DNA of 63,993 nucleotides, the filler included, from Sphacelaria rigidula (Eukaryota), in NCBI GenBank assembly GCA_964200075.2. It is 3 parts of 3 records of this genome, joined end to end, with 100 filler letters (N's around TTAATTAATTAA, not from the genome) between each part and the next. Parts side by side here need not be neighbours in the genome. Positions count along the whole stretch, not along the records: positions 21,395 to 42,687 come from CAXNAA020000442.1; 2 more parts are not named here. The stretch is one strand, 5' to 3'. Shown here in pieces: positions 4,530-40,909 of the stretch. Within the stretch, counting starts at the first letter, position 1. Each line of letters starts with the position of its first letter. The notes under the pieces are model-generated. The model was not told the DNA's origin. It saw nothing but the letters and a program-made list of their open reading frames with translations, and searched no databases. A program made the position numbers and the translations under genes.

Positions 4530-5720
4530 CCCTTATGAAAACGGTAGGGCGTGGTGGCATGTCAGGAAAATCCACAGGACCGTTGCATCACGGCTACAAT
4601 AGAGGCATCTTCTCTTCACAGCGCAGCACATCCACAACATCATATTTGCCCTTCAAGATGAAAGGCCCTTGCGCGGACGTGGCTGATACCTGTCATCAAC
4701 CATGTCTGAACATGTCCTGTCGTGACCGCTAAAGGCCCCAAGGAGGCTGGCCGCCCCCACAAATACTGGGGGAACAACCTGCAGGAGAAATTGCGTGCAC
4801 TAGAGGCTTTCCCACGCAAAGGAGTGCGACGGAAATGGTTCCATTGCGGTGTGGAGATGGGCGATGCACACAATCGGGTCACTGCGGCGAGGAACATGGG
4901 CAAATGGCCTCTTGGAGCCGATAAAGGGGCGAGACAGTACGCGAACACGTGCCGACGCGACGACAACCGCCAACCGGACCTCCGCCACGGATAAGAAGCT
5001 GCTGCGTCGAGAGCCGCCGATCGGAGAGCCGCCATTCGGAGAGCTGCCACCGCTAACACAACGCCAGCAATAGCTCGCGAGGCATCCAGGATGGAAATGA
5101 CGAGAGAATCACCCGCTGTGTACCCGAGTAGGGATAACTGGGGGGAGGTGGGCTCACACGACAACTGAAACTGACGTACCTCTGCCTTTAACTATCAACC
5201 GTTGATTTTTGTCCTTGGTTCGATGGTCTTGCGGGGTGCTCTGGTTGTGCATTTGCACCCGCTCTACTGTACTATGTCCTTGGGCTTCATCACTACTTCA
5301 GTTTCCCCCTTCTCTCTTGTCTCTCTTGTCTCTCTTCTCTCTCTCTCTTTCCTCCCGGTGTACGAGTATGCCAGTCCAAGTTTGGCGCTTCACGCCCGCA
5401 GGGTTTATGGATGAGCGCTTCATCCAAAAATAGTGATGTCGGAATAGATGAGCCACAATCTGTTCCCAAGGCTTGCTTGTTTTCAGGTGTGTTTTTTTTA
5501 GTTTGAGGGCATGTGCTTTTGCGGAAGACCTTTTCCACCTGAAGTCACGTTGCAGAGGTTGGGCCCTCTTTTTTTCCAGACTACTCTGGCTGTTCCATCC
5601 TTTGCTTCCCTTCACTTTTCTACGGAGAGTTTTTCCGTTTTGTTCATCTCGGGTAGGTCTATCATGTGATCACGGCTAGGTCTCTGGTAGATCAGTTCAT
5701 CTGCGACTATCGATCAATAG
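4530..5720 (+). mobile_element. 5'-truncated RTE-clade LINE (ORF2 end, 3' UTR and tail)
   Basis: GRPHKYWGNNL...VTAARNMGKW is collinear with 14600-15780. Ends in a GATCAGTT..GCGACTATCGATCAA tail. Confidence 0.75.
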
Positions 5721-5869
5721 AATGGACTAACCAACTTCGACTAATTGATTGACTGAGGCCGTGTCTTATCAAATTGTTTTCGACTCGAAAACGTACGGTG
5801 GAGTTGAATTTGCTCGTACCTGATACGTCCACTACATTCATGTTCTCAACCATCTGAGGAAAATAAATA

Positions 5870-6840
5870 CCGTAAAAGTGCGAGAGATGGCACCGGGTGC
5901 GATCGATTTTTTTAATGTTTCTTTCTCGGATTTTTTTTCGCACCCCGGTGCCATCTCCCCGACCCCGGTGCCAAAATGCAATTGAATGATTATTTCTGGA
6001 TTATTCAACGCACTACGGTGCCATCTCTCCGACCGGTGCGATGCCCAAACAAATGCAAACCGTGGCTTACATACATACTGATGATGCTACAGCAGTGCTG
6101 AAAGCGGGCACCCCGGTGCCATCTCTCGCATCATCACCGCACCCCATACCGCCTTACAGCAACTCATCGGTACCGTTGTACGAGCAGATAAAGGTGTGAT
6201 GTAATAACGGGAAGAAACAGGAAGCACACACCAGACGCACCTACACCGCTAGCTGTACACCGCGCACAACAACCCGAACCAGAAAAGGCGGCGAAATAGA
6301 TGAAAAAAGAAAAATCTCCCGCCAAGGTCCCGCCGATTTTTTTTGTGTGGTACCGCAGAGCACACATACAACCCAACCATGTCAGAGGACGCAGGTGCCC
6401 AAACCACCTCCTCACAGCCTAGTGGCAATGCTGCTACTGCTGCTCCTACTTCGGCTGCTTCATTTGGGTGTGTACGGTACTTTGTTCGGACGGAATGAGC
6501 GATTTTCCATGCGGATTAAATGAAAATAACAGACATCATCCTGCCTGAACCGTGACCATACGCAAAGCAGTGTTGCCTCAACAACATGTTGACAACACTA
6601 CACACGTGAAAGGTACCCATGTGTGTACATGCAGCAGCTCATGAGCGGCCCTGCTCCACCCGCGACACCCTCAAAGTTGGGTTCCGGGTCGGTAAGATCG
6701 CACCGAAGTGCGATCTTACCGACCCCGGTGCGAAAATACAATTAAATCATGCCATTTTCACTTCTTTTTTGCACACCCCCGTGCCAGCTCCCCGACCGGT
6801 GCCATCTTCCCGACCGGTGCCATCTCTCGCACTTTTACGG
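5870..6840. mobile_element. Non-autonomous Tc1/mariner-pogo-type TIR element (MITE)
   Basis: Perfect 27-bp TIR CCGTAAAAGTGCGAGAGATGGCACCGG, TA duplication at 5868-5869 and 6841-6842, internal CCGGTGCCATCTC repeats. Confidence 0.9.
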
Positions 6841-21394: not shown

Positions 21395-23126
21395 AGATAG
21401 GCAAGATCCAATCTGAGTTGCGTGGTTCCTACCGTAGGTTTGACCGTATCGGAATAAAAGTGTCACGGTAATTAGGTAGCCAGCGAAGTCTGGTGTGAAA
21501 CGTGTCCCCGATCGGTAGAGGTCCCTGCGTGCCTAACACTGATACATCTTTGCGTCTGCGATATACACCGAAAGAAAGGAAGAGAGAAGATAATAAAGGA
21601 CAAAACAGGAAAAGATAGGTGACACACGGAGAGTAGTATGGCCACCATGTTAGGGGTTCAGCTCAATAACAAAAAAACAGAAACAACCCCGCCAGGCACC
21701 CTCAGGCGGCGGGCCCATGGGTACGGACCGAATTATATAACGCATAATAAAGTAATTTCAAGTAATTTCATTTAAATTCTTATCAGTCCCTCTACATTAT
21801 ATAACGCACTATATAACGCAAACTTGATATTATTATAGACTCCGTCACACTTGTGTTCACCGGGTCTTCTGATCCCCGCAACCACTACAGCCACCGCAGC
21901 CACAGTGCAGGACTGTACTGTGCTGCGGAAATATGGTATCCAGGACACCAACGGCCCCACAAGGAGTGCTTAGTCTTTCTGTATACGGGTTGGTGTACCC
22001 AACGTTCGCTATGAGCGTCGTCGTGCCTGCGGTATCGTTGCGCTGGCGGGGGTCGGCGTTGCAGTCTCTATTTTTACGCTTAGCTAGCTTTTGCCTCCTG
22101 TATCCTGCACGGCTTTGGATACGGGGCATGAGATGAGGCGGTGCCATCGCTGTCGCTGTGCGTTGTTTCATGCTCCCTGATGGCATAACCCCAGAAAAGG
22201 ACTATATCGGCATTAATACTGCTACTGTTTCTCTCCATTGTTGGCCGTCGTGCTTTTGTTCGGGATGGCTCGTGTTGATCGGTGCCATGCAAACAGTACT
22301 CACGCGATGCCCACCGCCTGGCCAGGGTTGGGGCATCTTATGCAGTAAAGATGCAGTCGGTACCGCGACAGAAATTGTTTCAGGATGCAATGGCGAAGAC
22401 GACCAAATACTCTACACACGGGACATCAGACAGCTAACGCAAACATGCATTCCTCTTGCGTGTGCGATCCCGTGCGCTAGAGCACTGCCCTCTTTCGAAG
22501 GTATACCGTATAAGCTCGTTTCATGATGACATGGTGCCTGTGAAAATATCATCGATATACTGAACTGTTCTGGGCTGTAGCTAGCTAGCGGAGGGAAATG
22601 AAGCCCAGACCGGGCCTGGACAGAAAAAAAACCCCAACAATTCAATCTTATTGACCTCTCTGCGGCACATGGGGCTTGAGTAGCGCACGTGTGTCCATCA
22701 ACACAGAAATCCAGGGATAAATCCGTTCGAGAATCATGGAAAACAACGAAAAAGTCGATGATTTTAGTTTAATTATTATATAACGACCCGTACCCATGAA
22801 CTCGGTGCCAACCTTTTCATAGGTCGCAAAGTTGCTGCCCACGTCACAGGGTTCACGAACAGAAACAAAAGTACTGCACTGGTGTACTGATGTGCATACC
22901 GTACCACGGTCTGTATTTTGTAGGCGGCCAGTACAACAGACAACAGACAACAGACCACAGACAGCATTCAGTACAACATCAACCGCAGAGCTCAATGCTT
23001 CTCCCCCAACTCTGAACGCCACAACCCCTCCTTTAGAAAGCAGGCTCTCTTCAGTCAGACCACCTAACCTCAGCGCCGTAGTTCCAGCTTCGTCGCTTTG
23101 CCGACCCAAACATTTTACATGGCTAC

Positions 23127-26035: not shown

Positions 26036-27558
26036 CAGGCCGGTTCACAGAAAAAAAAAACGATTCTGTCATCAGCGAATGCCTTTTGCAATACGCACCC
26101 AATAGTGGCATACACGGTATCATACTGACCGCAATGGACAGACGAAGAGGGTGACATAGCCGGACTTTTGTTCAAGGCTGTAGCGGTGGCGCTATGGACA
26201 AAAATATGTCTCGACCAATCAGCGCCTTTCAAACTGTTCCGAAATTGAAAATACGAATTTCAAGCACAATTTCCACTGAATTTTCACATGCTTCAGATCG
26301 TAGTGACCGTCATCACCTCAATAATCTAACGGGAGAAACGGATTTGAAAACGTTTCCAACGGGATCGAATTATACCCGAAACCGTAATGTTTCGGTGATG
26401 TTGAGTTTGGCGTCGTCTAATTTCCGCTCATGATAGACAGGAAAGACTCGAGGAGCCTCGTGACGATTTCCCTTATATCTGATTGTAGAAAAGCTCAGAT
26501 CATCCTCAAACTTGGCAGTTCCGTAGGTATTGATGCTCCAAATGGAGAAGTTGTGTTCTTGGCAAGGGTTCAAAGTTTCTCCGTTCTCTACCAGCTTCCG
26601 GGGGTCCCAGTACAAAGACCTCCGAAAGGCGGTACAGAATGACTCAAAAGAAGAAATAATGACATGATGCCTCCCGGGATGGTCCAAGGAACACATGTAC
26701 GAAGTTTGGTGGAGAAACTCGAAAATCTCATACCATTTTTCCTGCCTTGACGTAAAATTCACCCTAAAAGATGTTTTTATACTTAAACCAAGTAGTCAGG
26801 AGTTTGCACGTTTTAAGCTCACATCCTCGCACAAACGCGCAAATCTTCCACGCATTTATTAGAAGTTAGACCCTGAAACTCTGCACAAATATACTATGAA
26901 TCATTACGCAAGTTTCGATCAACGATGTTTTTCTAGTACTTGATTTTTTTACCGTTTTTCGGGGGTCCGACGGGATCCAAGTCGTTTTTTCGAAGTCGTC
27001 CATTCTAGGACCCCGAAAAACCGGCACTACGGTCTTGTTTTCATTTCTTCGCGAACGCTCTGTCGCCGCACAACCCAAGGAAGAACCCCACAAAGTTTCG
27101 TGGCCAAAATCGATTAACTGGTGCTTGAATTTTCTTGTTTACGTCAAAGAAGGCCCAAAAACGCCATTTTCATATTAAAATCTAGTAGTTTGCTGTTTCA
27201 TCGTGGCACGGCAAGGTTTATCGCACAAACGCGAAAAACTTCATGCCGTGTTAAGGAGTTAGACCCTGAAATTTTGCCCAACTGTGCTATGGGTCATTAC
27301 ACAACATTGTATTGACGAGGTTTTTGATATATTTATTTTTGCCGTTGTACGGGGGTGCGACTGGATCTAAGTTTTCCCGTAAGAACTAGGACCCCGGAAA
27401 AAGGTGAAATAAGTCAAAAAGTCAAAAGAAAAATCGACCTTGGAAAGTTGCGTGATCACCCATAGAACACCTGTGCAAAATTTCAGGGTCTAACCCCTTA
27501 AAGCAGCGCAAAGTTTTGCCGATGAGTGCTTTTGGGTTTTTTCCCGTGAACCAGCCTG
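26036..27558. mobile_element. Non-autonomous Tc1/mariner-type TIR element
   Basis: CAGGCCGGTTCACAGAAAAAA ... TTTTTTCCCGTGAACCAGCCTG with flanking TA at both ends; internal TTAGACCCTGAAA repeats. Confidence 0.8.
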
Positions 27559-28227
27559 TACTTGATTCAAGTTGCGTACTTCAATAAACGGGTTACCCTA
27601 TTTATGGGACCGGAGCCCTGCTTCGAGTAATTTTGTAGCTGTATGGGGTTTTCATTCGGGGGGGGAAGGTTGTCTTCGGGCAGTTCTACGCAGGCTGTGC
27701 GATCACCAACCTACACAAGTCCTATTTTAGGATCCCACTTTTTCTTCAAATTTAGAAATGACCTCCAAATCATCAGCTGCGAACACTCCACATTATCCTT
27801 CGCCTTGGAATCGCTCAACTTGGGCGGTGGTGCGAAGCGCCAAAAACCTTGTAGCAGTTATGGCAATTACATTTAGCCTCAGATATATCCCTTGCAGGTA
27901 GGTGTTATTTTCATTGTCGAGCCCTCAAAGGCCACCATTTCGCCTTTACTTGATTTTAGTATACTACCTTTTTTTCGCCATCTGCGCTTTCCTGCAGATG
28001 GGTGTCATTTCACTCTGGGCGCCCCACAAACCAGCATTTCGCCTTTACTTGATTTTAGAGTACGTCTCTCTTCGTGCCATTTTTTTCCCGACGTTTTCTG
28101 AAGCCAGCATCTTGTCTTTACTCGGTTTTCGAGTCTTCTTCGCTGATTCTCTCCTCTTCAGCATTTCACTGACGTTAGAATGCGGGGCTTTGGAGTACCA
28201 TTTGCTTTCCGCTCTGTGTTTTGCATG

Positions 28228-28988
28228 ACTTCAGTACTCATCATGAGTCTACCCGAGTTGATCTCCCTAAGCACGTCGCCCCCAATACTAGACGGCCCAG
28301 TGACCACTTCCTCAGGTATCACCTTGCATATGTTGGGACCCAACGCATCGCTAATAGCTGATAGTGTGGTACTCTTACCCGTCCTGCTGGGACCCACTAT
28401 GCACACCATGTGCGAGAGCTGCTTGGGGTCTACTATGCAGTTGCCTATGTGCCACAGTAGCACCAGGGTCAGGTCCTGCATCACGTTAGATACGGATGGG
28501 AATGCGCCCAGTTCGATGCAATCGATACCCATCATCAGCGGTACCTCTACCCCTATTAAGGGACACACACTCATACTAGGATCGTAGCTAACACTGGCAG
28601 ACGATTCGCACAACACGGACAACGGCTCCTCTGTCAGCGCCACTGTCACATCACCCTCTGCGTCGGAGTCATAGCCAGGGTCACCAGGAACCGAACTCCT
28701 TACTTCCATACCGTGGCGACCAGTGGCTAGGCAAACACTCATTGGGAACTTGACCCTAGGTATCGGACCATTGAGGAGTATTTGCTTCACTGGCTCGGCG
28801 GCGATCGCAGTATTGACACTCGCACTCGAACCACTACTGAAGCTGATGTGCCTTGTAGCCAGTCCACTGTCGATAGGTGTCCATCCACCTAGGGGTCCCG
28901 CATAAATATACACAGTACCATTGCTCATTGCTACGTGACCATCCCTCAGCAATCTGTTGGCTATCTCTGCTGGCGACACTATGGTCAT
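28228..28988 (-). pseudogene. Virus/plasmid-type D5-like superfamily-3 helicase, C-terminally truncated
   Basis: D5_N-like start (GTVYIYAG..GW), LLWHIGNCI...MVCIVGPSRTGKSTTLSAISDALG (Walker A), GRLMMSTE (Walker B). Intronless; cut by host repeat before motif C. Confidence 0.85.
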
Positions 28989-29778
28989 GGTGATACGGTC
29001 AGTGAAGGCCAGTGGTGGTTATTTATACATTACTTGTAGCGGTACACCACCCACCACCATCATGACCAACGAGTCACACCTGCTGAGAGACATCACTAGG
29101 TGGGTGGACAAGGTAGAGCACAGAGGGGACCACGAGGATGAGGGGAAGGACGTGATCTTTGGCACCCCCAACCGGAGACTGGAGAGGATAGCTAGCATAG
29201 TGGGACTATCTATCGGGTGCAGGTACGATGGTGTGAATGTCGAGGAGGGGTTTGAGGACAGCTACTGCGTGATGGGCTACGATATCGAGTGTGAGTTCGA
29301 TCCTAGTGGCTCTGTACCGGTAACGGACAGGGGCCGTATCATCTGTGCTAGTGTGTCCTGTAGTTGTGGCTATGCTATGAGCTATGGTACCGTACACTGC
29401 GACTATGGCCGTAACTACAAGAGGGTATCCGACTCTACTAAGGCCGCGGTTGAGCTGATGAGGTGCATACAGAGACACATGCCACTCTTCATTGTGGGGC
29501 ACAACGCATACCAGTTCGACAACAGGGTCCTGGCTTACTGGGTGGGCTGCAACCACAGGTACACGGACGAGTTGTGCATTGATAAGTACTTCCGAGTCGT
29601 ACCTAGCACCAGGGGACGCGACGACAGCATATCAGTGATGATGACCATACCTGGTACTAACAACGTCGATATGCTAGTGTGGTTCAGGAGCACGATGTTC
29701 ACTGAGTACCATAGCTTTGGGCTCAACGCGTTGTGCAAGGCGGAAGGTATACGTGGCAAGGCCCACACAGTGGACTGA
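28987..29778 (+). CDS. polB: Family-B DNA polymerase 3'-5' exonuclease domain, virus-like
   Basis: ExoI VMGYDIEC, ExoII FIVGHNAYQFD, followed by NVDML..YHSFGLNALC...GK. Intronless and open for 263 codons; no ExoIII. Confidence 0.88.
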   Translation: MVIRSVKASGGYLYITCSGTPPTTIMTNESHLLRDITRWVDKVEHRGDHEDEGKDVIFGTPNRRLERIASIVGLSIGCRYDGVNVEEGFEDSYCVMGYDIECEFDPSGSVPVTDRGRIICASVSCSCGYAMSYGTVHCDYGRNYKRVSDSTKAAVELMRCIQRHMPLFIVGHNAYQFDNRVLAYWVGCNHRYTDELCIDKYFRVVPSTRGRDDSISVMMTIPGTNNVDMLVWFRSTMFTEYHSFGLNALCKAEGIRGKAHTVD

Positions 29779-30019
29779 TGCAGAGGCTGAACCTGTTAGT
29801 GGCTTCAGGAGTGCATTACGTCCCCGCCGGTTCAGTGGCTTCAGGAGTGATGCTAGAGAGGGAGCTGAGGTGCGAGGAGGTAAGCACGGGTCTGGGAGTG
29901 GTCAGTTCCAATTGCAGCGTCACTACCAGGACCAGTTGCATGTACCTGGAACCACTCACTACCCTCACTGGTTGCGTGGTGATAGACATGGACTACAGTC
30001 GGGAAGCACCTACTTCCCT
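29778..30019 (+). pseudogene. Truncated ORF with a degenerate PolB motif A (region II)
   Basis: ATG overlaps the upstream TGA. MYLEPLTTLTGCVVIDMDYSREAPTS aligns with the VLEP..G....V..LDF.SLYPS consensus. Confidence 0.5.
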
Positions 30020-31638
30020 GTGCCCCGCATCTCAGCAGACCCTTCCAACTTTGCCGGGTCTCAGCGGCCCCTTCGAATGCATGGCGGGGCTGCACTCGGA
30101 ATCGGCATTATTTTCACTCAATCATGTTAAAAGAAGTGATTATGTTCACGACGGCTAGATTAAACACGTTCACTCGACGAAAAGAGACGATCATGTTCTT
30201 CATCACATCATAATCTCTACTTGTTTTTCAGAGACTTTTTCGCCGATCCTCTTCTCTTTAGCATTTACTGATATTAGGTTGCGTGGGTTTGGAGTACCAC
30301 TTGCTTTCTGCGCTGTTTTGCATGGTTTTCGAGTGCCGCGTCTCAGCGGACACTTCGAAGGCATGCCGTGGCTGCACTTGGCATCGGCATCATTTTAACT
30401 TGATCATGTTAAAGAAGCGATTATGTTCATGACGAGGTACAAGAGGAACAGAAGAGATAGCGGTGTGCGTCGATCGAAGTGCCATCTCGACTGAGTACAG
30501 TTTACTCTCGAGCGTATTTTGATGTGTGAATCGATCGGCGTGCCATCTCAAAAGAACTCAGTTTACTCTGGGGGCAGGGCTTCAGCACCTGTGTCGAAAT
30601 TTGAATCGTTCCGATTTTCATCGTGTTTGAATCGGCATCATGTTCACTTGAATCGGCATCATTGGCGTCAAGATCGTCATCCATTGTGACGTTCGTGGCC
30701 CGCATTGATTAATTGGTGAAAACGCTCTGAGCTCGGATCTCCTGTTCTGTACCGTTCCGGCATCTGCTGAAAAAACTCACAAACACCAACGGTCAGCGCA
30801 TCATCTCCTTCAGCTTGAGTCATTGTCTCACCGGGCCCTTCGAAGGCATGGCGTGGCGCAGCTGCATTTGGAATCAGTATCATTTTCACTTATTATGTTA
30901 CAGGAAACGATCGTGTTCATGACGAGGTACACAAGGAACAAACGAGATAGCGATGTGAGTCGACCGGCGTGCCATTTCGACGGAGTACAGTTTACTCTCT
31001 GGGCAGGGCTTGAACATCCCTAACGTGTTTTGATGCGCGAGGCGATCAGCGTGTCATCTCGAGTGAGCACAGTTTATTCTCGAGGCAGGGCGTCAACACC
31101 TCGAGTTCGTTTTGATCTCACACGCGTGTCTCTTCCCTCCTGTTGAAAATTGAATGGGCAGGCATCGCTCCGTTTTTTTTTACAGTTTTTGAATCGGTGC
31201 CATCGCTATCATGAGCTTCTTGGGCCGTGATTGGTGAAAGTCATCTCGGCTCGGGTCTTCTGTTCTGCACCGTTCCGGCATCTGCTGAAAGAGCTCGAAC
31301 AAACACCAACGGTCAGCGCATCATCTCCTTCAGCTCGGGAAATTGCTGGGGAAAATATCGTTCTTGACATCCTTGAAACGGTCTACTTCCTCGGGCCGAG
31401 AAACAATCACCCATGTCTGGGACGCACTTTGGTCTTTTTCTTCGGCTGGGATCATTTTCGTGGGACCTGCCACCCCCGACCGCATTCATTCAGTCATCTT
31501 CACTCATGTTCATGACGCATTCACTCATGTTCATGACTCCGAGGAACATATCTTTGTTCCACTCCCCCCAGCACCAAACGAAGAAGAGCGAACTACGCCC
31601 CACGGCGAAGGGATTGGACAGTGTGTTGGTGCAAGGGT

Positions 31639-33457: not shown

Positions 33458-35377
33458 CACACGTCGGACAACTCAACTCAGGTTAACACGAGTGAACTCT
33501 TTTCGGCATGACTCACCTGTGAGTTATAGCAAAACATAAGTCAGTGGTGCACGTTCTGGTCGGGTGAGTTATACAGCATGGCTCAGCGATGCAAAATGTG
33601 GCTGGCTGGGCGAGTTGTAATACATAACTCAGCGGTGCACATTCTGGCGGAGTGAGTTTTAGCAGCGTAACTCAGCGGTGCATATTCTGCCCGGGTGAGT
33701 TATGGAAGATGACTCAGCGATGCATATTCTGATGAGGCGAGTTATAGAAGATGACTCAGCGATGCATATTCTGATCGGGTGAGGTATAGAAGATAACTCA
33801 GCGGTGCACGCTATGGCAGGGTAAGTTATATTGCCTCTGTGCCATAAGTATTGGTCCTTATGATTGCACGGAGCCTTGACGGTGTGAAATTTGATTTTCG
33901 ATCTCTTTATTGCATTCGTCGGCGTTTCTTGAGCTAAAACCAACGTTATTTCTACAACGTGGGTGCTTGACCCATGCAGCCGCGTGTCCGAGAAAAAGTG
34001 CATCGGTCCAAAAACGGCCATTTTTCGTTCGCTTTCCCAGAAAAGCATGAGAGGGCCGGGAACACGAAAAATCGCGAAAAATGGGCCAGAAAATGTGAAA
34101 ATCGCGAAACCACCATTGATTTTGGACATGTCCGTCATGTTAACCGACGCACGCCCCATCCAACATTTTGGTAGCATGTAATTGCTAGTGCTTGACGTGA
34201 AAACGTCCAAAAATCGGTCAATAATGTGGGTATAAATGGATCAAAAAGGGTCAAAATGGGGTATATTACGAATTAATTTTAGTCATGGAAGCAAGTGTTT
34301 TCTCTCGGGGTTTCTCCTTCATGAGCTTCGTCTGCGCTTTACCTCTCTAACGAACCCTACCATAGGTTGATCGTCACCGTTGAAATACCCAAACGATTAA
34401 ACGCCCATGAGGACCTTTACTTGTGGCACAGAGGAAGTAGACGATAAGTCAGAGATGCATATTCTGGCCGGGTGAGTTATAAAACATAACTCAGCGGTGC
34501 ACATTCTGGTCGGGTGAGTTGCACAAGATAACTCAGTGGTACATATCCTGGCCGGGTGAGTTGTAGAAGATAACTCAGCGGTGCATAATCTGGTCAGGTG
34601 AATTATAGATCATACCTCATCGCTGCAGAATCTGGCCGGGTGAGTTATATACTATACAACATAACTGATCGGTCAAAAAGAGAGCGACACCTGGAGCTCC
34701 CTCATGTGTTTCGAGTTCTGTACACGGAGATGAGTTATTTGCCTCTCTCATTGTGCTCCCGTATTATATGTGCTCGTATTACACCTGCGGAAGTATTTAT
34801 TTTTTCTGGTGCGGATCGACCCCGGGATTTCTCATGCCACATGTGTCGGCAGACGTGTCACGTGATGACGTGGTTCTGCTTAGGCCGTGGTTTAACGAGA
34901 CAAGAAAAGTGAGAAGGCGCGGTGAGAGTGCGAGCGATACTGGGGATTGTGCGGTTTCTTTTCCTTTCTGTTGTCCTTCCCGTTGGTTGCTCATTAGCTC
35001 CCAACCTATCGGATAGACCAAACAAAACAAGAAAATATCATAACCGCCGGAATCACCGTCACCCTCACGGCACGTACGCACTTGTCTTGCCTCGCCTTGA
35101 AACGGGTCTTCGCACAAGTGACCGGTGTTGACCCCTGCGTTCCACATGTTTCCGATCGGGTGGGTTGGTCGTACGACATGACTCATTTTTCGATAACTCA
35201 GCTGTGAGTGATGCAAGATGACTAAGCGGTGCACATTCTGGCCAGGTGACTTATAGAAGATAACTCAGCGGTGCATATCTGGGCGGGTTAGTTATAGAAG
35301 ATAACTCCGCGGTGCATATTTTCGGCCGGTGAGTTATACGGCATAACTGAGTTGACTCATGAGTTGTCCGACGTGTG
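33458..35377. mobile_element. TIR element with internal ~44-bp tandem repeats
   Basis: TIR CACACGTCGGACAACTCA / TGAGTTGTCCGACGTGTG, flanks GAACTTTT / TAACTTTT, unit AACTCAGCGGTGCATATTCTGGCCGGGTGAGTTATAGAAGAT. Confidence 0.8.
33831..34437. mobile_element. Nested MITE with TA target duplication
   Basis: CCTCTGTGCCATAAGTATTGGTCCTTATG / CATGAGGACCTTTACTTGTGGCACAGAGG. It splits one 44-bp unit at a TA. Confidence 0.8.
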
Positions 35378-36227: not shown

Positions 36228-37367
36228 CTTTCCGTGCATCAAACGAAGATCGCGCTCCCTCTCGTCAATCTGCATCCGCAACTCGGCGATGTCGTGATCC
36301 TTGCCGGCGAGCCGCATGTTCAGTTCCGAGATGGTCTCCTCCAACGACCGCCTCTCCCGCTCCAACGCCATCCACGCACCGCCGTCTCTGCCGGTGCTGC
36401 TTGAGCTCCCACCGGATCGACTCGAGGTACTTGAAAAACAAAGAGAAAAAAGGGGGGGGGGGGGGGAGAAATGGGAGGCAAACAAACACGTCATGTTTTC
36501 CCTTCGTTTTTTTTTGTACGTATCGCTCGCCTAACGGTGAATTGTTTTGAGAAGCGCGAGTGACGCCTATACGTGTGTGTAGATTGGAAGAGAGTGGTCT
36601 GCTGCATGATGCCGTGCGCGCGCGCTTCGTGGTGTACGTACACTGTAGCCCGCAGCAGATGTCCGTGCTCTGTGACTCCACGACTATACCATCTACACTC
36701 ACGCCATCTGCCGCTGAATAGCATCGGAAACGACTTCCAGCCGCGAAAAAAAATCAACTCCTTTCGGCCATACGGTTACCGTAACGCGACCAAAAATGCA
36801 CGGATGTGTTACCCCCCTGGCTCCCAGTACGGCGACTTACCCCACGCCGAAGTAGAGACTCGTGTGCAGCATACAAACCTCACAAATACACGAGCAGAAA
36901 AATGTTTCCCCTGAGTCATCGCTCCGACAACATACATGTCCACAGTTCTCACGACGTAAAATACAAAAAGGGAGAACAAAAGTCACCTGTAAAGTGTACG
37001 AAGCTCCATCAGACTCGAAAAAGCCACGCCCCACTTCTTCTCAAACTCCCAGCTCTCGTCCCTCTCCCCCCCATCCACCCTGCCGCCCATCATGCCACCG
37101 AAGCCCACTGAGTTGCCGTGACTTGCCGGGGATAGCGGCGTAAGCGCAAGCGACGGAGAGCGGGCGGCCGGCGGCGGCGCAGTCGCGCAACGCTGAGGCA
37201 CCGGCTGGTTTGACCAGTGCGCGCCCCCGAATTCCACGCTCGGGTAGTCACCTCCGCCGCCGGCCGACCGTGACCGACGGCTTCTGGTATTGCCGTCCCC
37301 CTGCGGCGGCGGCGGTGCGTGTTGATGATGCTCGCCATCACCGCCACCGCCGCCGCCACCACCACCG

Positions 37368-37398
<31 letters not shown>

Positions 37399-39959
37399 TG
37401 ATCCCGTCCACGACCTCGGCTACGGGCGCCAGCGGCGTCAGTGACGGCGAGTCCGCACCGACGATGCCGACGGATGACGACGATGACGCGGAAGCGACGG
37501 GGGGTGTCCTGACCGGCGACGGAACCGGCTGTTGCTGCTGCTGCTCCTGCTGTTGTCGCTGATGAAGGTGTTGGTTGTTGGTTTTGTGGTGGCCACTGTG
37601 GTGAAGGTATGTCTCATCATCGCGAGGCGGCTGCAGAGTGGCGAGGGATACGCCGTTCTGACGGACGGAAGTTCGCCACTCCTGCGGCGTCGGGAGTCCC
37701 GGGGCCGCGGCGAGGGAAAGCTTGGAACCACCAATCTCGCCACTGCCACTAGGTTTCCGGCCACTATGCGTGGCGGTCATGGTGGCGGCGGTGATGTGTG
37801 CTGATAGGGGCTGCTCGATGGCCTTGGCAAAGCGAGGGGGTGTGGGAGACGTCTCGCTCAGGTGATAGCCTCCTGCTGGCTGATTGTTGGCCAAACCGTA
37901 CACAGATTCGATGGGAAAGCGGGCGTGAGGTCTCTTGGCCGCTGAGAAATCGACTGTTCCGCCACCCGCACGGCTGCTGGGGTGGCCTGCACTCCCCGCC
38001 TGACCTCCATTTCCCCCACTGCTCGCCCCAACGCCACCATTGCTACCCCTGACGTTGGCATCTTGCCATTTTGTGGCATCCGCTTGGACCGTGAGAGATG
38101 CGACAGGAGCCCGAGCCGGCAGCGTCTCCGACGCATCTTGGACGGACGGTGGGATAATAGGCGCGGCGGCAGCTGCGGCGGTATCAGAACAAGAAGTCGA
38201 GGACGGGTGGCGTTGAACGCCGGTAGGGGGGACAACAGACGGCGACAGCGATAATGAGGAAGTGCTAGGGCACCGCCGATGCCTGTCACGTGCAGCCGCC
38301 TTCGTGGGTGCGTGACAAGACTCGCCCGATGTCACCACTGTCGCCGCCGCGATTGCCTCTTCCTTCGGCGCACATTCTATTCGCCTATCTTCCACACCGT
38401 CGTTCGCAATAACGGTTCCAGAATCTTCCACTTTTCGTGCCCTCGCTCGCGCGTCTGCAAGCATAGTACAGATTTCTTCACGGACTTCGCCATCAACGCC
38501 TTTTCCAAACACTTCACCCGCTAGCTTCCCGCCGGGCCCCGGCAAAACGGACACGGCCACCCCTTCAGGTTGCTGAAGCAGCATTTCTACCAGCGATCGG
38601 TGACCTTCCCGCGCGGCAATGAACAGCGCCGTCGGGAGAGCCGGAGGGGGCGCAGCTTCAGCGGTAGCAGCGGTAGTGGCAGCGACTGGCTTCACTTCGA
38701 TCATTCCACCGCTTCCTCCTTTTGTTTCTGCTACGCTTACGGGCGTTACTCCACCAACATAATGAAATGCCTTACTTACGGAAAGGTTGGATGATGCACC
38801 GGCGGCTATGGACGCCCCTCGACGCAGCAACTCTTGGACCACCTCCAGGTGACCGTTCTGTGTGGCGAGGCACAGAGGCGTGAGCTCGATAGCCGTCCGC
38901 GCCTCTTTGTCGGCGCCGGCTTCGAGCACCTTGCGGACTATAGCCAAGTGGCCATGGAACGATGCTAGTGCGGGAAAAGCGATAAGGGATAAGGCAGCGG
39001 GAGGTCCTTTTGTTAAGTAGCCATCGCGCGCGGGGGAGGGCAAGAAGGGTCGAGTACGGTCAACTAGAATTGCCAAATCTCTTCTGAATTTGAAGGAGAA
39101 CTACACCCTGTCAAAATGGATGTTTGTGTACAAGCTTGGTACCAACACAGTATGTTCAGCACCCCATGGGGGAAAAAACAATACAACTATCCCTCCCCCC
39201 AACAAGAGCAGAACAGGGCCAAAGCATATCCCAAGAGTCTGAAGACGTCGAGAAAAAATATGGACTTTTGACACATTGAGTAGAGTACCGGGCACACCTG
39301 AAAAATGCAAACACGCTCCACTTACCCGTTGCGGGACGCTCGAAGGCTAGCAGTTTCTTACGGTATCTAGGTAAATTTAACAACAATGTTTTCTTGAATA
39401 AGGCAGTGCGCACTTCGCTACTATGGTAGCGCGCACGGTGAAAAAAGGAAACAGCACGGAAAAAATGGCGTTTGTGAAGCACGAAAAACACATTGGGGGC
39501 ATAACGACAATAACAACAACAACACACACCGTGGTGAAGGAGAGACCATTGGCGACCGTCGCGCACGTCCACATCACCACCACCGCTTAGATGCTCGCCG
39601 ACTCTCGCCAAGTCACCCGCGGCTGCCGCCGAGTGCATGTCCCCGTTCGACCCATTCCTGCCGGCCCCCGCAGACCGCTTCGTTCGCGTCGGTCCCATCA
39701 CCGACATCAGGGACCCCTGAACAAATCGACCGCTACCGCTAGCCCCCGGCGCCAACCCCCCGTTAACCTTAGCCTTTGGCTTCACGCCACCTCCTGTTGC
39801 TGCTGCTGTGCTGATGGCAATAAGGGGTGAACAAGATGAAGCACTTGGGACAGGCGCAGCCGATGCCGACAGGGTTGTCAACGAGGACAACGTAGACCGG
39901 CCTGCCAGCTGCTGCTGCTGTTGCTGCCGCCGCAGCGTGGTCTCATGATTGCGCCGCAT
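36228..39959 (-). CDS. Ankyrin-repeat protein with long low-complexity linker and coiled coil; exons 39530-39959, 36987-38964, 36228-36429; 3' end not traced
   Basis: Splicing rebuilds the ankyrin repeats MHSAAAAGDL..DVDVRD..WSLLHH|ASFHGHLAIVRKVLEAGADKEARTAIELTPLCLATQNGHLEVVQELL and TALFIAAREGH. Phases are consistent. Exon 3 is heptad-rich (LEETISELNMRLAGKDHDIAELRMQIDE). Confidence 0.88.
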
Positions 39960-40909
39960 CGTGGCGGTATCGGTGAGGGCGGAATCAGGGGGGGTTGGCA
40001 AGGAGAGAAGGCGGGGGGGGGGGGGGGGCGGCGCCGCCCGCCCGACGGCGGCGCCGCGAGGTAACTTCAATTATAGAAGTTGTTGAAGGAATCACTTCCG
40101 GTTGTGTTGCAGGTTGTGTGTTGACGCTGGCGGTTGCGAATGCAGACTACTGCCTTGTTCAACGTGCAACAATGTGCCTATGTAACCACGCTCCCCTTCC
40201 CCCTTGTCACACGCCTTGCGTTGATACAGCCCGACACCCCCTTTCCCCCGCAGCCGTTGCAAACGTTCCCCCTAGATGCGGCACGATCTCACGCTCTCCT
40301 TATTAGGCTCGCTACTGTAATTCCTCGAGGGCGAGGCGGCTCCACCGACACTCGCTGATGCACCCTTCCGCCTTTCCTGGCGTTCGCTCCAGTTCGCCCT
40401 CTCGCTTCTTGGGGTCGTGGATGGCTTGCCGATCAAATGGATAGGGGAGTTTTCAGCTTGCTCACCTCGAAGCCGACCAACGCAAGATGATATGTACCTT
40501 GTAGAAGCAGCTGCTGCTACTGCACAGGCAATACTGTACTGTTATCCCTCGCTCGCAACTACGGAATTGCACACCGAACTCCCCGTCTTCCTGTGCGACA
40601 GTCACCACAACACAGCACACCGCACAGACAGGACAGTGCACCCTGCGGTCACGCTCTGTACAAGAGAGGAAAACTTCCCTTAGATGTTTTCGCTCTTCTC
40701 CACGTTTCTTCTTGACCTACCCTACAAACAGCAGTCTTTGTACACGAAGAGCTCACGCCCGAGAGCAGTCCGCTCGGGACGCGGTCGGCGACCTTAATCA
40801 CCAAGATACCAAATGGGCTCTTGCGGTAGTCAGTAAGTAGTACGACGATTCGTTGTTGCGCCGGCCGCCGCTTCACAGGGATCAAACCAGAGCACCGACC
40901 GTCTGAGAC

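Follow-up and report, generated by a model that had tools for sequence, protein, structure and literature searches.

Brown algae carry many phaeovirus insertions, as set out in PMC11890097 and PMC12993054. Such endogenous viral elements (EVEs) of the EsV-1/FsV type consist of integrated genes of double-stranded (ds) DNA replicons, and include a D5-type helicase and a family-B DNA polymerase (PolB). The PolBs of fungal EVEs fall into at least five clades according to PMC13533422 (its S6 Fig). Polintons, polinton-like viruses (PLVs) and virophages are small integrating elements, often with a superfamily 3 (SF3) helicase. The stretch of DNA analysed here (the window) comprises 63,993 nucleotides, filler included, from Sphacelaria rigidula (assembly GCA_964200075.2); it is made of three parts joined end to end, and positions 21,395 to 42,687 come from CAXNAA020000442.1. 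Within that part, an insert of 1823 bp at 28229-30051 interrupts one unit of a dispersed host repeat and carries the 5' portions of two genes, one for a predicted D5-type SF3 helicase and one for a PolB. With a probability of about 0.8 it is an inert relic of a foreign DNA replicon from a rare, unnamed lineage, captured in the repeat. No description of a family that pairs a PolB with a primase-less D5-type helicase was found in full-text searches of the literature, including PMC13533422, PMC11890097, 10.1101/2025.04.19.649669, PMC7544198 and PMC12721341.

The insert and its two truncated genes

The limits of the insert follow from a repeat search and direct alignment. An intact repeat unit at 30225-30425 aligns with 28126-28228, skips 9 nt and then aligns with 30052-30145; the junctions lie at 28228/28229 on the left and 30051/30052 on the right. 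At the insertion site the insert takes the place of the skipped 9 nt (GTTTTCGAG), and a target-site duplication is absent. The left boundary is also where protein homology to relatives ends (28227-28229, tblastn). Word depth over the left part of the repeat climbs leftwards from 205 to about 3600 in one sequencing run (X1), against 77 for the insert. The composition of the insert sets it apart as well. It contains no A/T run of five or more letters, against 8-19 in each neighbouring 2-kb block, and its CpG observed/expected ratio is 0.63 as opposed to 1.05-1.16 in the flanks; its GC content is 0.536. The low CpG ratio may be linked to the Met/Cys/Val-rich (ATG/TGY/GTG) coding seen throughout the family.

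Two open reading frames (ORFs) diverge from a common start region. One lies on the minus strand at 28158-29018 (286 codons from stop to stop) and the other on the plus strand at 28939-29778 (279 codons); both are among just 19 ORFs of at least 180 aa in the 64-kb window. Their start codons overlap by 2 nt within a CATG, a head-to-head arrangement with zero intergenic spacer. The N-termini of relatives begin at equivalent residues (P0003 and P0069 for PolB; P0008, P0009 and P0071 for the helicase), and the spacer-less arrangement therefore seems native to the donor. Residues D57, E59, N129 and D134 are invariant in PolB alignments of four and seven family sequences, as are G192, K198, S199, T200 and R239 in an alignment of 14 helicase members. 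The two proteins contain 3.9-4.7% Met, 2.7-4.6% Cys and 8.9-10.6% Val. Past Walker B the helicase ORF runs through 23 codons of host repeat to a stop at 28158-28160, and the PolB ORF continues beyond 29763 to a stop at 29776-29778. Both genes are cut within their catalytic domains, and for this reason the locus is an inert relic, unable to encode a working helicase or polymerase.

Much of this had been anticipated in a preliminary description of the locus. The two long ORFs are where it placed them, the SF3 Walker A/B and PolB ExoI/II motifs are present with their catalytic residues conserved across the family, the proteins are enriched in Met, Cys and Val, and the segment is free of the long A/T runs of its flanks. 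Its span of 28228-30019 was close to the sharper limits now available. The term replication module needs correcting: the D5-type helicase and PolB genes are real, but only their 5' parts are present, in a 1.8-kb relic that is no working module. The description had also called for a check of coverage across both junctions, which turned out to be bridged at single-copy depth.

The locus was checked in public sequencing runs as assembled contigs rather than raw reads. In run X1 (study P1), contigs identical to the window extend over 27500-29702 and 29726-30800. In run X4 (study P2, with the label algae metagenome) they extend over 27500-29710, where 13 substitutions and 10 gap letters separate them from the window, and over 29797-30800; a contig from run X3 covers 27731-28263. 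Both junctions are thus bridged in contigs of two independent studies. At a word depth of 77 (X1) and 22 (X4) the insert is at single-copy level, while the flanking repeats are in the thousands. Presence in samples of two studies with about 0.6% divergence indicates that the insert is now fixed or common. Inside the insert, X4 differs from the window by four substitutions, two synonymous and two conservative (R>K, V>M); X3 and X6 have one of the four in common. At 29318 there is an in-frame indel, with 6 nt missing from X3 and X4 and present in the window and X1. The window allele at this position has two extra residues (VT) relative to P0003 and P0004, beside a GTACCG/GTAACG near-repeat. A 71-nt node within the PolB fragment (29685-29755), where contigs break, has about 3.7 times the word depth of the remainder of the insert in X1, and this excess makes additional PolB copies elsewhere in the same genome probable. 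Run X6 gave contigs at 28744-29266 (523 nt, covering the shared start region) and 29785-29935 (151 nt) at a depth of 2-3. The RNA label of this run is a guess, and its contigs are not evidence of transcription; none of the sequencing runs that contain the locus is listed as RNA.

The insert ends in a tail of 288 nt that has no significant match to 23 family proteins (blastx, best E 0.046) or to the rest of the window. The best of these similarities lies at 29775-29909 on the plus strand, with 29% identity over 45 aa to helicase residues 12-56 of P0071/P0010 (E 0.046 in the 23-protein database). It could be a second scrambled scrap of helicase or chance.

The polymerase and helicase families

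The PolB ORF of the window reaches 30.3 bits with Pfam PF03104, where the cutoff is 23 (E 3.5e-7). Three of 904 candidate proteins match it. The closest, P0003, has 687 aa and 72% identity (E 5.8e-125); the others have 741 aa (63%) and 732 aa (31%). Residues 1-257 of P0003 align to 28987-29763 (tblastn), and homology ends at residue 257 of 687-792. The window copy retains the N-terminal domain, ExoI and ExoII, while ExoIII and motifs A, B and C are absent from the window. All four are present in P0003, P0004, P0005, P0048, P0072, P0073 and P0074, with motif A as DxxSLYPS, B as KxxxNSxYG and C as YGDTDS; sequences in the relatives include SLDFNSMYPN, KICANSLYG and YGDTDS, and there are matches to Pfam PF00136. 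The family is compact (690-790 aa, the longer relatives having 753-792 aa), with ExoI about 100 residues from the start. A profile built from seven members matches archaeal PolB best in PDB (6.8e-48); next come Pol delta (1.5e-38) and Pol alpha (7e-36), with E. coli Pol II (4e-32) and a poxvirus polymerase (1e-28) further down. On these scores the enzyme is predicted to be a replicative PolB of the RNA/DNA-primed type, about the size of its archaeal counterparts. The protein-primed family PF03175 scores 25.1 bits for P0003 and 19.1 for P0004 against a cutoff of 25.8, with PF00136 well above its own cutoff; P0069 (26.3 bits) and P0064 (26.5 bits) exceed the PF03175 cutoff, yet neither has a single stretch that passes on its own.

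The family is rare and sharply bounded. In a PolB profile search the five listed family members score 1128-300 bits and the next protein 149 bits. About eight PolB relatives are known, at 72% to about 25% identity, and the cluster of P0003 has 16 members on many short contigs. Only 19 of 250 candidate stretches in IMG/VR match the PolB, at just 21-30% identity, and their ORFs are 900-1540 aa long as opposed to 690-790 aa in the family. In prokaryote genomes a single stretch of 56 matches, in an archaeal metagenome-assembled genome, at 22% identity. The PolB alignment matches 322 of 594 stretches in metagenome contigs (JGI and other); besides one contig, L020, these are generic PolBs at 20-29%. 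L020 (7.4 kb) has 27% identity to P0004 (E 2e-30) and is the sole match that resembles the wider family. Its PolB, at 4687-6229, is decayed into at least four ORFs and has no helicase beside it; it adjoins a TA-rich microsatellite and an ORF with a sub-threshold RVT_1 match (E 3.3e-4). It is probably another eukaryotic endogenous copy.

The helicase is more difficult to recognise from the window alone, where its ORF has only generic P-loop matches in Pfam (E 0.015 or more). Against the family proteins it reaches E 2.5e-50 to 1e-20. The matches of the ORF are itself (P0006, on a Logan contig), a 232-aa chimeric ORF at 68% and proteins of 492-512 aa at 31-33%; a Laminaria digitata protein has 45% identity (tblastn). 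This relative, with the algae metagenome label of run X4, makes a brown alga plausible as the host. Homology ends at about residue 250 of 490-512, leaving motif C (TTN) and the RR arginine-finger region beyond the left junction. In the 14-member alignment the full-length relatives (440-560 aa) continue past Walker B to motif C (TTN/SN) and RR. Their N-terminal domain of about 140 aa is family-specific, with ASVN and SVC motifs. No primase family is found among the Pfam matches of the 14 members, and these N-terminal residues contain no invariant acidic residue. In PDB the best matches of the helicase profile span 140-180 positions, more than the P-loop by itself, and are to a primase-helicase (7ola, 6.5e-5), D5 of vaccinia (4.3e-3) and E5 of monkeypox (4.4e-3). 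DUF5906 is found in 7 of the 14 members at E 0.01 or less (best 1.6e-5), and its cutoff of 27.6 bits is unreached in the 10 members inspected (maximum 23.7).

The fold comparison was made on a relative, P0008 (512 aa), the window helicase being known by sequence. Its AlphaFold2 model (14-row alignment) has a pLDDT of 71.9 and a pTM of 0.75. Foldseek places monkeypox virus (MPXV) E5 (E 2e-11), vaccinia D5 residues 323-785 (3.5e-9) and the PrimPol of African swine fever virus (ASFV) at the top of its PDB matches, with E values of 2e-11 to 1e-8, a probability of 1.00, about 390-510 aligned columns and 10-14% identity. The best BFVD matches are D5-like proteins of phage P4 type and of nucleocytoplasmic large DNA viruses (NCLDVs), virophages and ichnoviruses, and the neighbours of the helicase in the ESM Atlas are DUF5906, D5_N and Pox_D5 clusters. 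The window gene is accordingly best modelled as the 5' half of a primase-less, D5-type SF3 helicase gene. Among 1.84 billion representative proteins the helicase has 50 matches at E 1e-3 or less, of which 8 are at 1e-10 or less. A profile search by word index returned five proteins only, because P-loop words crowd the candidates. In IMG/VR the helicase alignment matches 9 of 589 stretches, all phage-like at 23-27%, and P0045 and P0039 match nothing there; the helicase P0017 alone matches none of 212 stretches in metagenome contigs (JGI and other). In one distant relative, P0025 (Logan), the SF3 helicase is preceded by a fused NADAR domain at the N-terminus (Pfam E 2.9e-39).

The named relatives come from brown algal and fungal assemblies, among others. 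CAM9293254.1 of Laminaria digitata is a member of the helicase family, and CCU82736.1 of Blumeria hordei is a family member carrying the UniRef name SF3 helicase domain protein. One gene model of Rhizoclosmatium hyalinum (KAJ3083791.1) joins PolB and helicase. Another, in Globomyces sp. (P0072), joins PolB to a divergent second-largest (beta) subunit of RNA polymerase (RNAP). This RNAP part is recognised by Rpb2_6 (E 2.5e-11); over its last 365 residues it is similar to archaeal Rpo2 (1.6e-13), Pol II Rpb2 (7e-10) and vaccinia rpo132 (2.6e-5), and the ESM Atlas has no usable match for it. More distant relatives are proteins of Gautieria and Cymbomonas, and the remaining members are unnamed ENA and Logan proteins. 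The contigs that encode relatives measure 23 kb in Rhizoclosmatium, 24 kb in Globomyces (protein HDV02_002482) and 19 kb in Laminaria digitata, and 11, 18 and 16 kb for P0004, P0015 and P0022 (Logan and ENA). The chytrid relatives could be among the fungal EVE PolB clades of PMC13533422. On a 5.6-kb ENA contig that also encodes a 687-aa PolB, helicase residues 1-130 are joined in frame to the PolB motif-B region (P0007/P0070). This is a rearranged, chimeric copy in another assembly, and as such shows that scrambled fragments of the element are common.

In free trees the polymerase stands apart from its cellular and viral homologs. The first tree (61 rows, 849 columns, LG+G4, quick search) combined the fragment of the window with seven PolBs of the family, with named PolBs (Pol delta, Pol alpha, archaeal), with unnamed matches and with ORFs from 16 IMG/VR loci. 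The second (37 rows, LG+C20 PMSF) dropped 24 of the 61 rows, namely near-duplicates, the long branches L014 and L016, P0075, P0076 and others. The window row fills 27-28% of the kept columns. The eight family rows form a clade with an SH-aLRT support of 100 in the first tree, where the window adjoins P0069 and P0004, and the clade lies outside the starred 40-row clade of Pol delta and giant-virus PolBs. The family is again supported at 100 in the second tree, outside a 22-row clade of Pol delta and IMG/VR rows (support 97). Both trees keep it separate from the Pol delta, Pol alpha and archaeal PolB rows. From these comparisons it appears safe to state that the family is not a canonical, close phaeovirus relative.

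The preliminary description fares well on the identity of the two proteins. It had proposed a D5/SF3 helicase that lacks a primase domain, which the structural and Pfam matches of the relatives bear out, and a compact PolB of the RNA-primed type, as the motifs, PF00136 matches and length of the relatives indicate. Its view that the proteins are divergent and that the donor may not be a canonical phaeovirus agrees with the low identity of the IMG/VR PolBs and with the free trees, which place the family outside both the NCLDVs and Pol delta. Nesting with cellular Pol delta or alpha, which it named as grounds for abandoning a viral origin, is not seen. The features of the locus are collected in Table 1.

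Table 1. Coordinates of the insert, its truncated genes and the interrupted repeat unit
Feature	Position	Strand	Basis
Left part of interrupted host repeat unit	28126..28228		Repeat alignment
Inserted foreign fragment	28229..30051		Interrupted repeat alignment, homology end, composition, bridging contigs
5' half (~253 codons) of predicted D5-like SF3 helicase gene, ATG 28988-28986	28229..28988	-	Homology, motifs, relative's model
Walker B region RLMMSTE, abutting the left junction	28230..28250	-	Motif
Walker A GPSRTGKST	28368..28394	-	Motif; residues invariant in 14 members
Overlapping divergent starts, CATG	28986..28989		Sequence; relatives' N-termini
5' third (~259 codons) of compact family-B DNA polymerase gene	28987..29763	+	PF03104; tblastn with P0003 residues 1-257
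ExoI YDIEC	29278..29292	+	Motif, family alignment
ExoII GHNAYQFD	29497..29520	+	Motif, family alignment
Insert tail, no assignable homology	29764..30051		blastx against 23 family proteins
Right part of interrupted host repeat unit	30052..30145		Repeat alignment

The surroundings of the insert are repetitive. High-copy host repeats occupy 27500-28060 and 30052-31350, where the word depth climbs to about 3600, the insert having 77. To the right of the insert a unit of some 280-520 nt is repeated at least three to four times, and there are many alternative joints in the run contigs. Two arrays of 42-nt tandem repeats (33531-33872 and 34403-34691) are about 700 nt from each other. Of the host genes close to the insert, the clearest is a GC-rich (0.60-0.67) ORF on the minus strand at 36986-39100 and 39159-40070, which encodes ankyrin repeats (Pfam Ank, E 7.5e-13) and, across 36986-40070, long Gly, Gln and Ala runs. 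At about 1700, in a proline-rich frame (ORF 1417-2112), a short run of N (X in translation) marks an assembly gap.

Origin of the insert

The most likely account is that a 1.8-kb scrap of a foreign replicon was joined into a chromosome break inside the dispersed repeat of the host. End-joining, rather than the action of an integrase, would have been responsible, as fits the lack of a target-site duplication and the loss of 9 nt of the repeat. The scrap spans the head-to-head start region of the helicase and polymerase genes and keeps their 5' parts only, the helicase through Walker B and the polymerase through ExoII. Neither product can work, the helicase lacking motif C and the arginine finger and the polymerase lacking ExoIII and the whole palm. 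Judging from the two families, the intact donor presumably had a hexameric SF3 helicase that unwound its genome and a PolB that copied it.

The donor, a DNA virus or a self-replicating element, is uncharacterised, and its lineage occurs in brown-algal, chytrid and other eukaryotic assemblies. The divergent RNAP beta subunit adjoining the PolB of a chytrid relative suggests that it had its own transcription machinery. Among donor types, a dsDNA virus that encodes an RNAP of its own ranks as most likely, with the chances about evenly balanced; the main alternative is a smaller polinton-like or plasmid-like self-replicating element. A fuller picture is more tentative, and the odds are somewhat against its holding in every part. 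The insert would then be the fossil of a deep branch of eukaryotic dsDNA viruses or autonomous replicons, as yet undescribed and outside the established orders of the Nucleocytoviricota, with a compact Cys/Met-rich PolB of the RNA-primed type, a primase-less D5-type helicase placed head to head with it through overlapping starts, and a divergent multisubunit RNAP of its own, and with hosts among the brown algae, chytrids and ascomycetes.

Several points weigh against the preferred account of a relic from such a lineage. In chytrids, PolB is linked to RNAP and to helicase through fused gene models that an automatic annotation produced. The lineage is known from the insert and the proteins of its relatives alone; neither capsid nor packaging ATPase, integrase or terminal repeats have come to light in it, and with no virion gene seen the word virus is used provisionally. 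Contigs of about 19 kb and about 25 kb repeatedly carry distant relatives of the helicase, a size that suits small polinton-like viruses better than a large virus. The reference set for the trees holds no named phaeovirus, herpesvirus, mirusvirus or baculovirus PolB. The family rows have a deviant amino-acid composition and long stem and branches, and the approximately unbiased (AU) test does not reject a tree that joins them to three IMG/VR rows (L005-L007), which we take to be chlorovirus-like (lnL difference 16.6, p 0.12). Taken together, the AU result, the composition and the branch lengths would make a highly derived NCLDV origin possible. An old pseudogene would not be expected to keep its frame open over some 255 codons, as both ORFs still do, and residual expression is possible in view of the X6 contig over the shared start region, subject to the guessed label of that run.

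The strongest rival is a donor of 15-30 kb, a small polinton-like, virophage-like or plasmid-like element with a primase-less SF3 helicase and a compact PolB instead of a large RNAP-bearing virus. It is a real contender, if unlikely to be the right one. The contigs of distant helicase relatives (23-30% identity) are nearly uniform in size, with the P0045 cluster at 18.9-19.4 kb in at least seven rows, P0039/P0240 at about 25.2 kb, and P0041 and P0015 at 16-18 kb. Virophage and mavirus SF3 helicases are among the structural matches, and one relative is found in Cymbomonas, presumably a green alga rich in polinton-like and virophage-type integrations. The many short contigs of the 16-member P0003 cluster suggest a multi-copy element. 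These contigs of about 19-25 kb, however, are recognised by their helicase relatives and may or may not encode this PolB. The PolB is of the RNA-primed type with YGDTDS and falls under the PF03175 cutoff in P0003 and P0004. To our knowledge, small elements of this kind use a protein-primed PolB or fusions of a primase-polymerase with a superfamily 3 helicase (S3H). The Globomyces relative, with its junction to an RNAP beta subunit, also speaks for a larger donor.

An ordinary phaeovirus or other NCLDV provirus, strongly diverged, is an improbable source. Phaeovirus insertions are the usual source of viral DNA in brown algae, the D5-type helicase and PolB are NCLDV core genes, and a clade of the family with the chlorovirus-like PolBs survives the AU test. 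Against this, the best giant-virus PolB segments in IMG/VR are only 21-30% identical, the free trees, with either model, leave the family outside the starred clade of Pol delta and NCLDVs, and the proteins are of a different build, with PolBs of 690-790 aa as opposed to 900-1540 aa in IMG/VR and helicases of 440-560 aa that lack a primase. The nearest relatives, moreover, include chytrid and ascomycete genomes.

A host gene that was domesticated or is still expressed, for example one for a truncated 276-aa P-loop protein, is a very improbable reading of either ORF or of both. The frames are open for about 255-276 codons and a gene caller predicted a 276-aa product on a Logan contig (P0006); the four substitutions between alleles are synonymous (two) or conservative (two) and the 6-nt indel is in frame; and X6 contigs whose RNA label is guessed cover 28744-29266 and 29785-29935. 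Both proteins nevertheless end in the middle of a catalytic domain, the helicase in 23 codons of host repeat, five allele differences are far too few to show selection, and the X6 contigs have a depth of 2-3. A misassembly, contamination or a pseudogenised cellular polymerase (Pol delta, alpha or zeta, or the Pol II of bacteria) has only a generic family-B similarity in its favour and is scarcely credible, given the same junctions in contigs of two studies at host single-copy depth, a family clade apart from Pol delta, Pol alpha and archaeal PolB, an E. coli Pol II score below that of archaeal PolB, a single prokaryote locus at 22%, and a D5-type helicase head to head with the PolB.

Four identifications of the proteins were considered and rejected. 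The cellular Pol delta or alpha pseudogene fails on the separate family clade in the trees, and bacterial Pol II on its profile score below archaeal PolB and the one prokaryote locus at 22%. The protein-primed PolB of polintons is rejected on PF03175 scores at or below the cutoff or with no passing stretch, with PF00136 well above cutoff. The SF1-pPolB fusion of Oxyrrhis PLVs has a helicase of a different superfamily and a polymerase of a different type.

Comparison with described systems

The locus itself is inert and without effect on the host, and its value is that of a pointer. It ties unannotated proteins of kelp, chytrids, powdery mildew and metagenomes into one family pair, to which IMG/VR has nothing closer than 21-30%. 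If full-length copies carry capsid or transcription genes, they would represent a new DNA virus lineage with a very wide range of eukaryotic hosts, and hence a second, non-phaeovirus source of endogenous viral DNA in brown algae. If the copies are bounded by repeats and hold replication genes only, they would be a new self-replicating eukaryotic element that uses an RNA-primed-type PolB.

The closest described helicases are poxvirus D5/E5 and ASFV C962R. Family members have in common with these the P-loop core, a collar helix that precedes Walker A and a helical domain at the C-terminus, and the order of Walker A, Walker B, motif C (TTN) and RR is the same. In contrast to D5/E5, family members have no archaeo-eukaryotic primase (AEP) domain, are 440-560 aa long as opposed to at least 785, and are only 10-14% identical. 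The polymerase shares ExoI-III and motifs A (DFxSLYPS), B and C with the archaeal PolBs of Thermococcus and Pyrococcus (about 775 aa), with E. coli Pol II, and with Pol delta and the NCLDV PolBs, and in size (690-790 aa) it is similar to the archaeal enzymes. It differs from the archaeal, Pol II and Pol delta PolBs in forming a separate, long-stemmed clade, in being Cys/Met-rich with ExoI about 100 residues in, and in its occurrence in eukaryotic assemblies beside a viral-type helicase.

As an element, the insert resembles several known kinds in part. Its gene pair corresponds to the replication core of large dsDNA viruses, which consists of a D5 helicase and a PolB. The contigs of about 19 and about 25 kb that carry distant helicase relatives fit polintons, PLVs and virophages. 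Unlike in polintons and PLVs, the PolB of the family is of the RNA-primed type, and the 1823-bp insert contains no integrase or capsid genes. Other NCLDV core genes (those encoding a major capsid protein (MCP) as well as A32 ATPase, and VLTF3) are likewise absent from the insert, and the family proteins match nowhere else in the window. The family departs from the Nucleocytoviricota in lacking a primase domain, in its compact PolB and in having no close giant-virus PolB; its placement in the trees is outside the group but not decisive. Compared with phaeovirus EVEs, the locus is a 1.8-kb scrap in a host repeat as opposed to a provirus of at least 100 kb, it has relatives in fungi, and its PolB is 21-30% identical to giant-virus PolBs, in a comparison made without a named phaeovirus sequence. 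As an endogenous fragment of a DNA virus-like replicon the insert is thus of a known kind, while the lineage from which it came is apparently undescribed.

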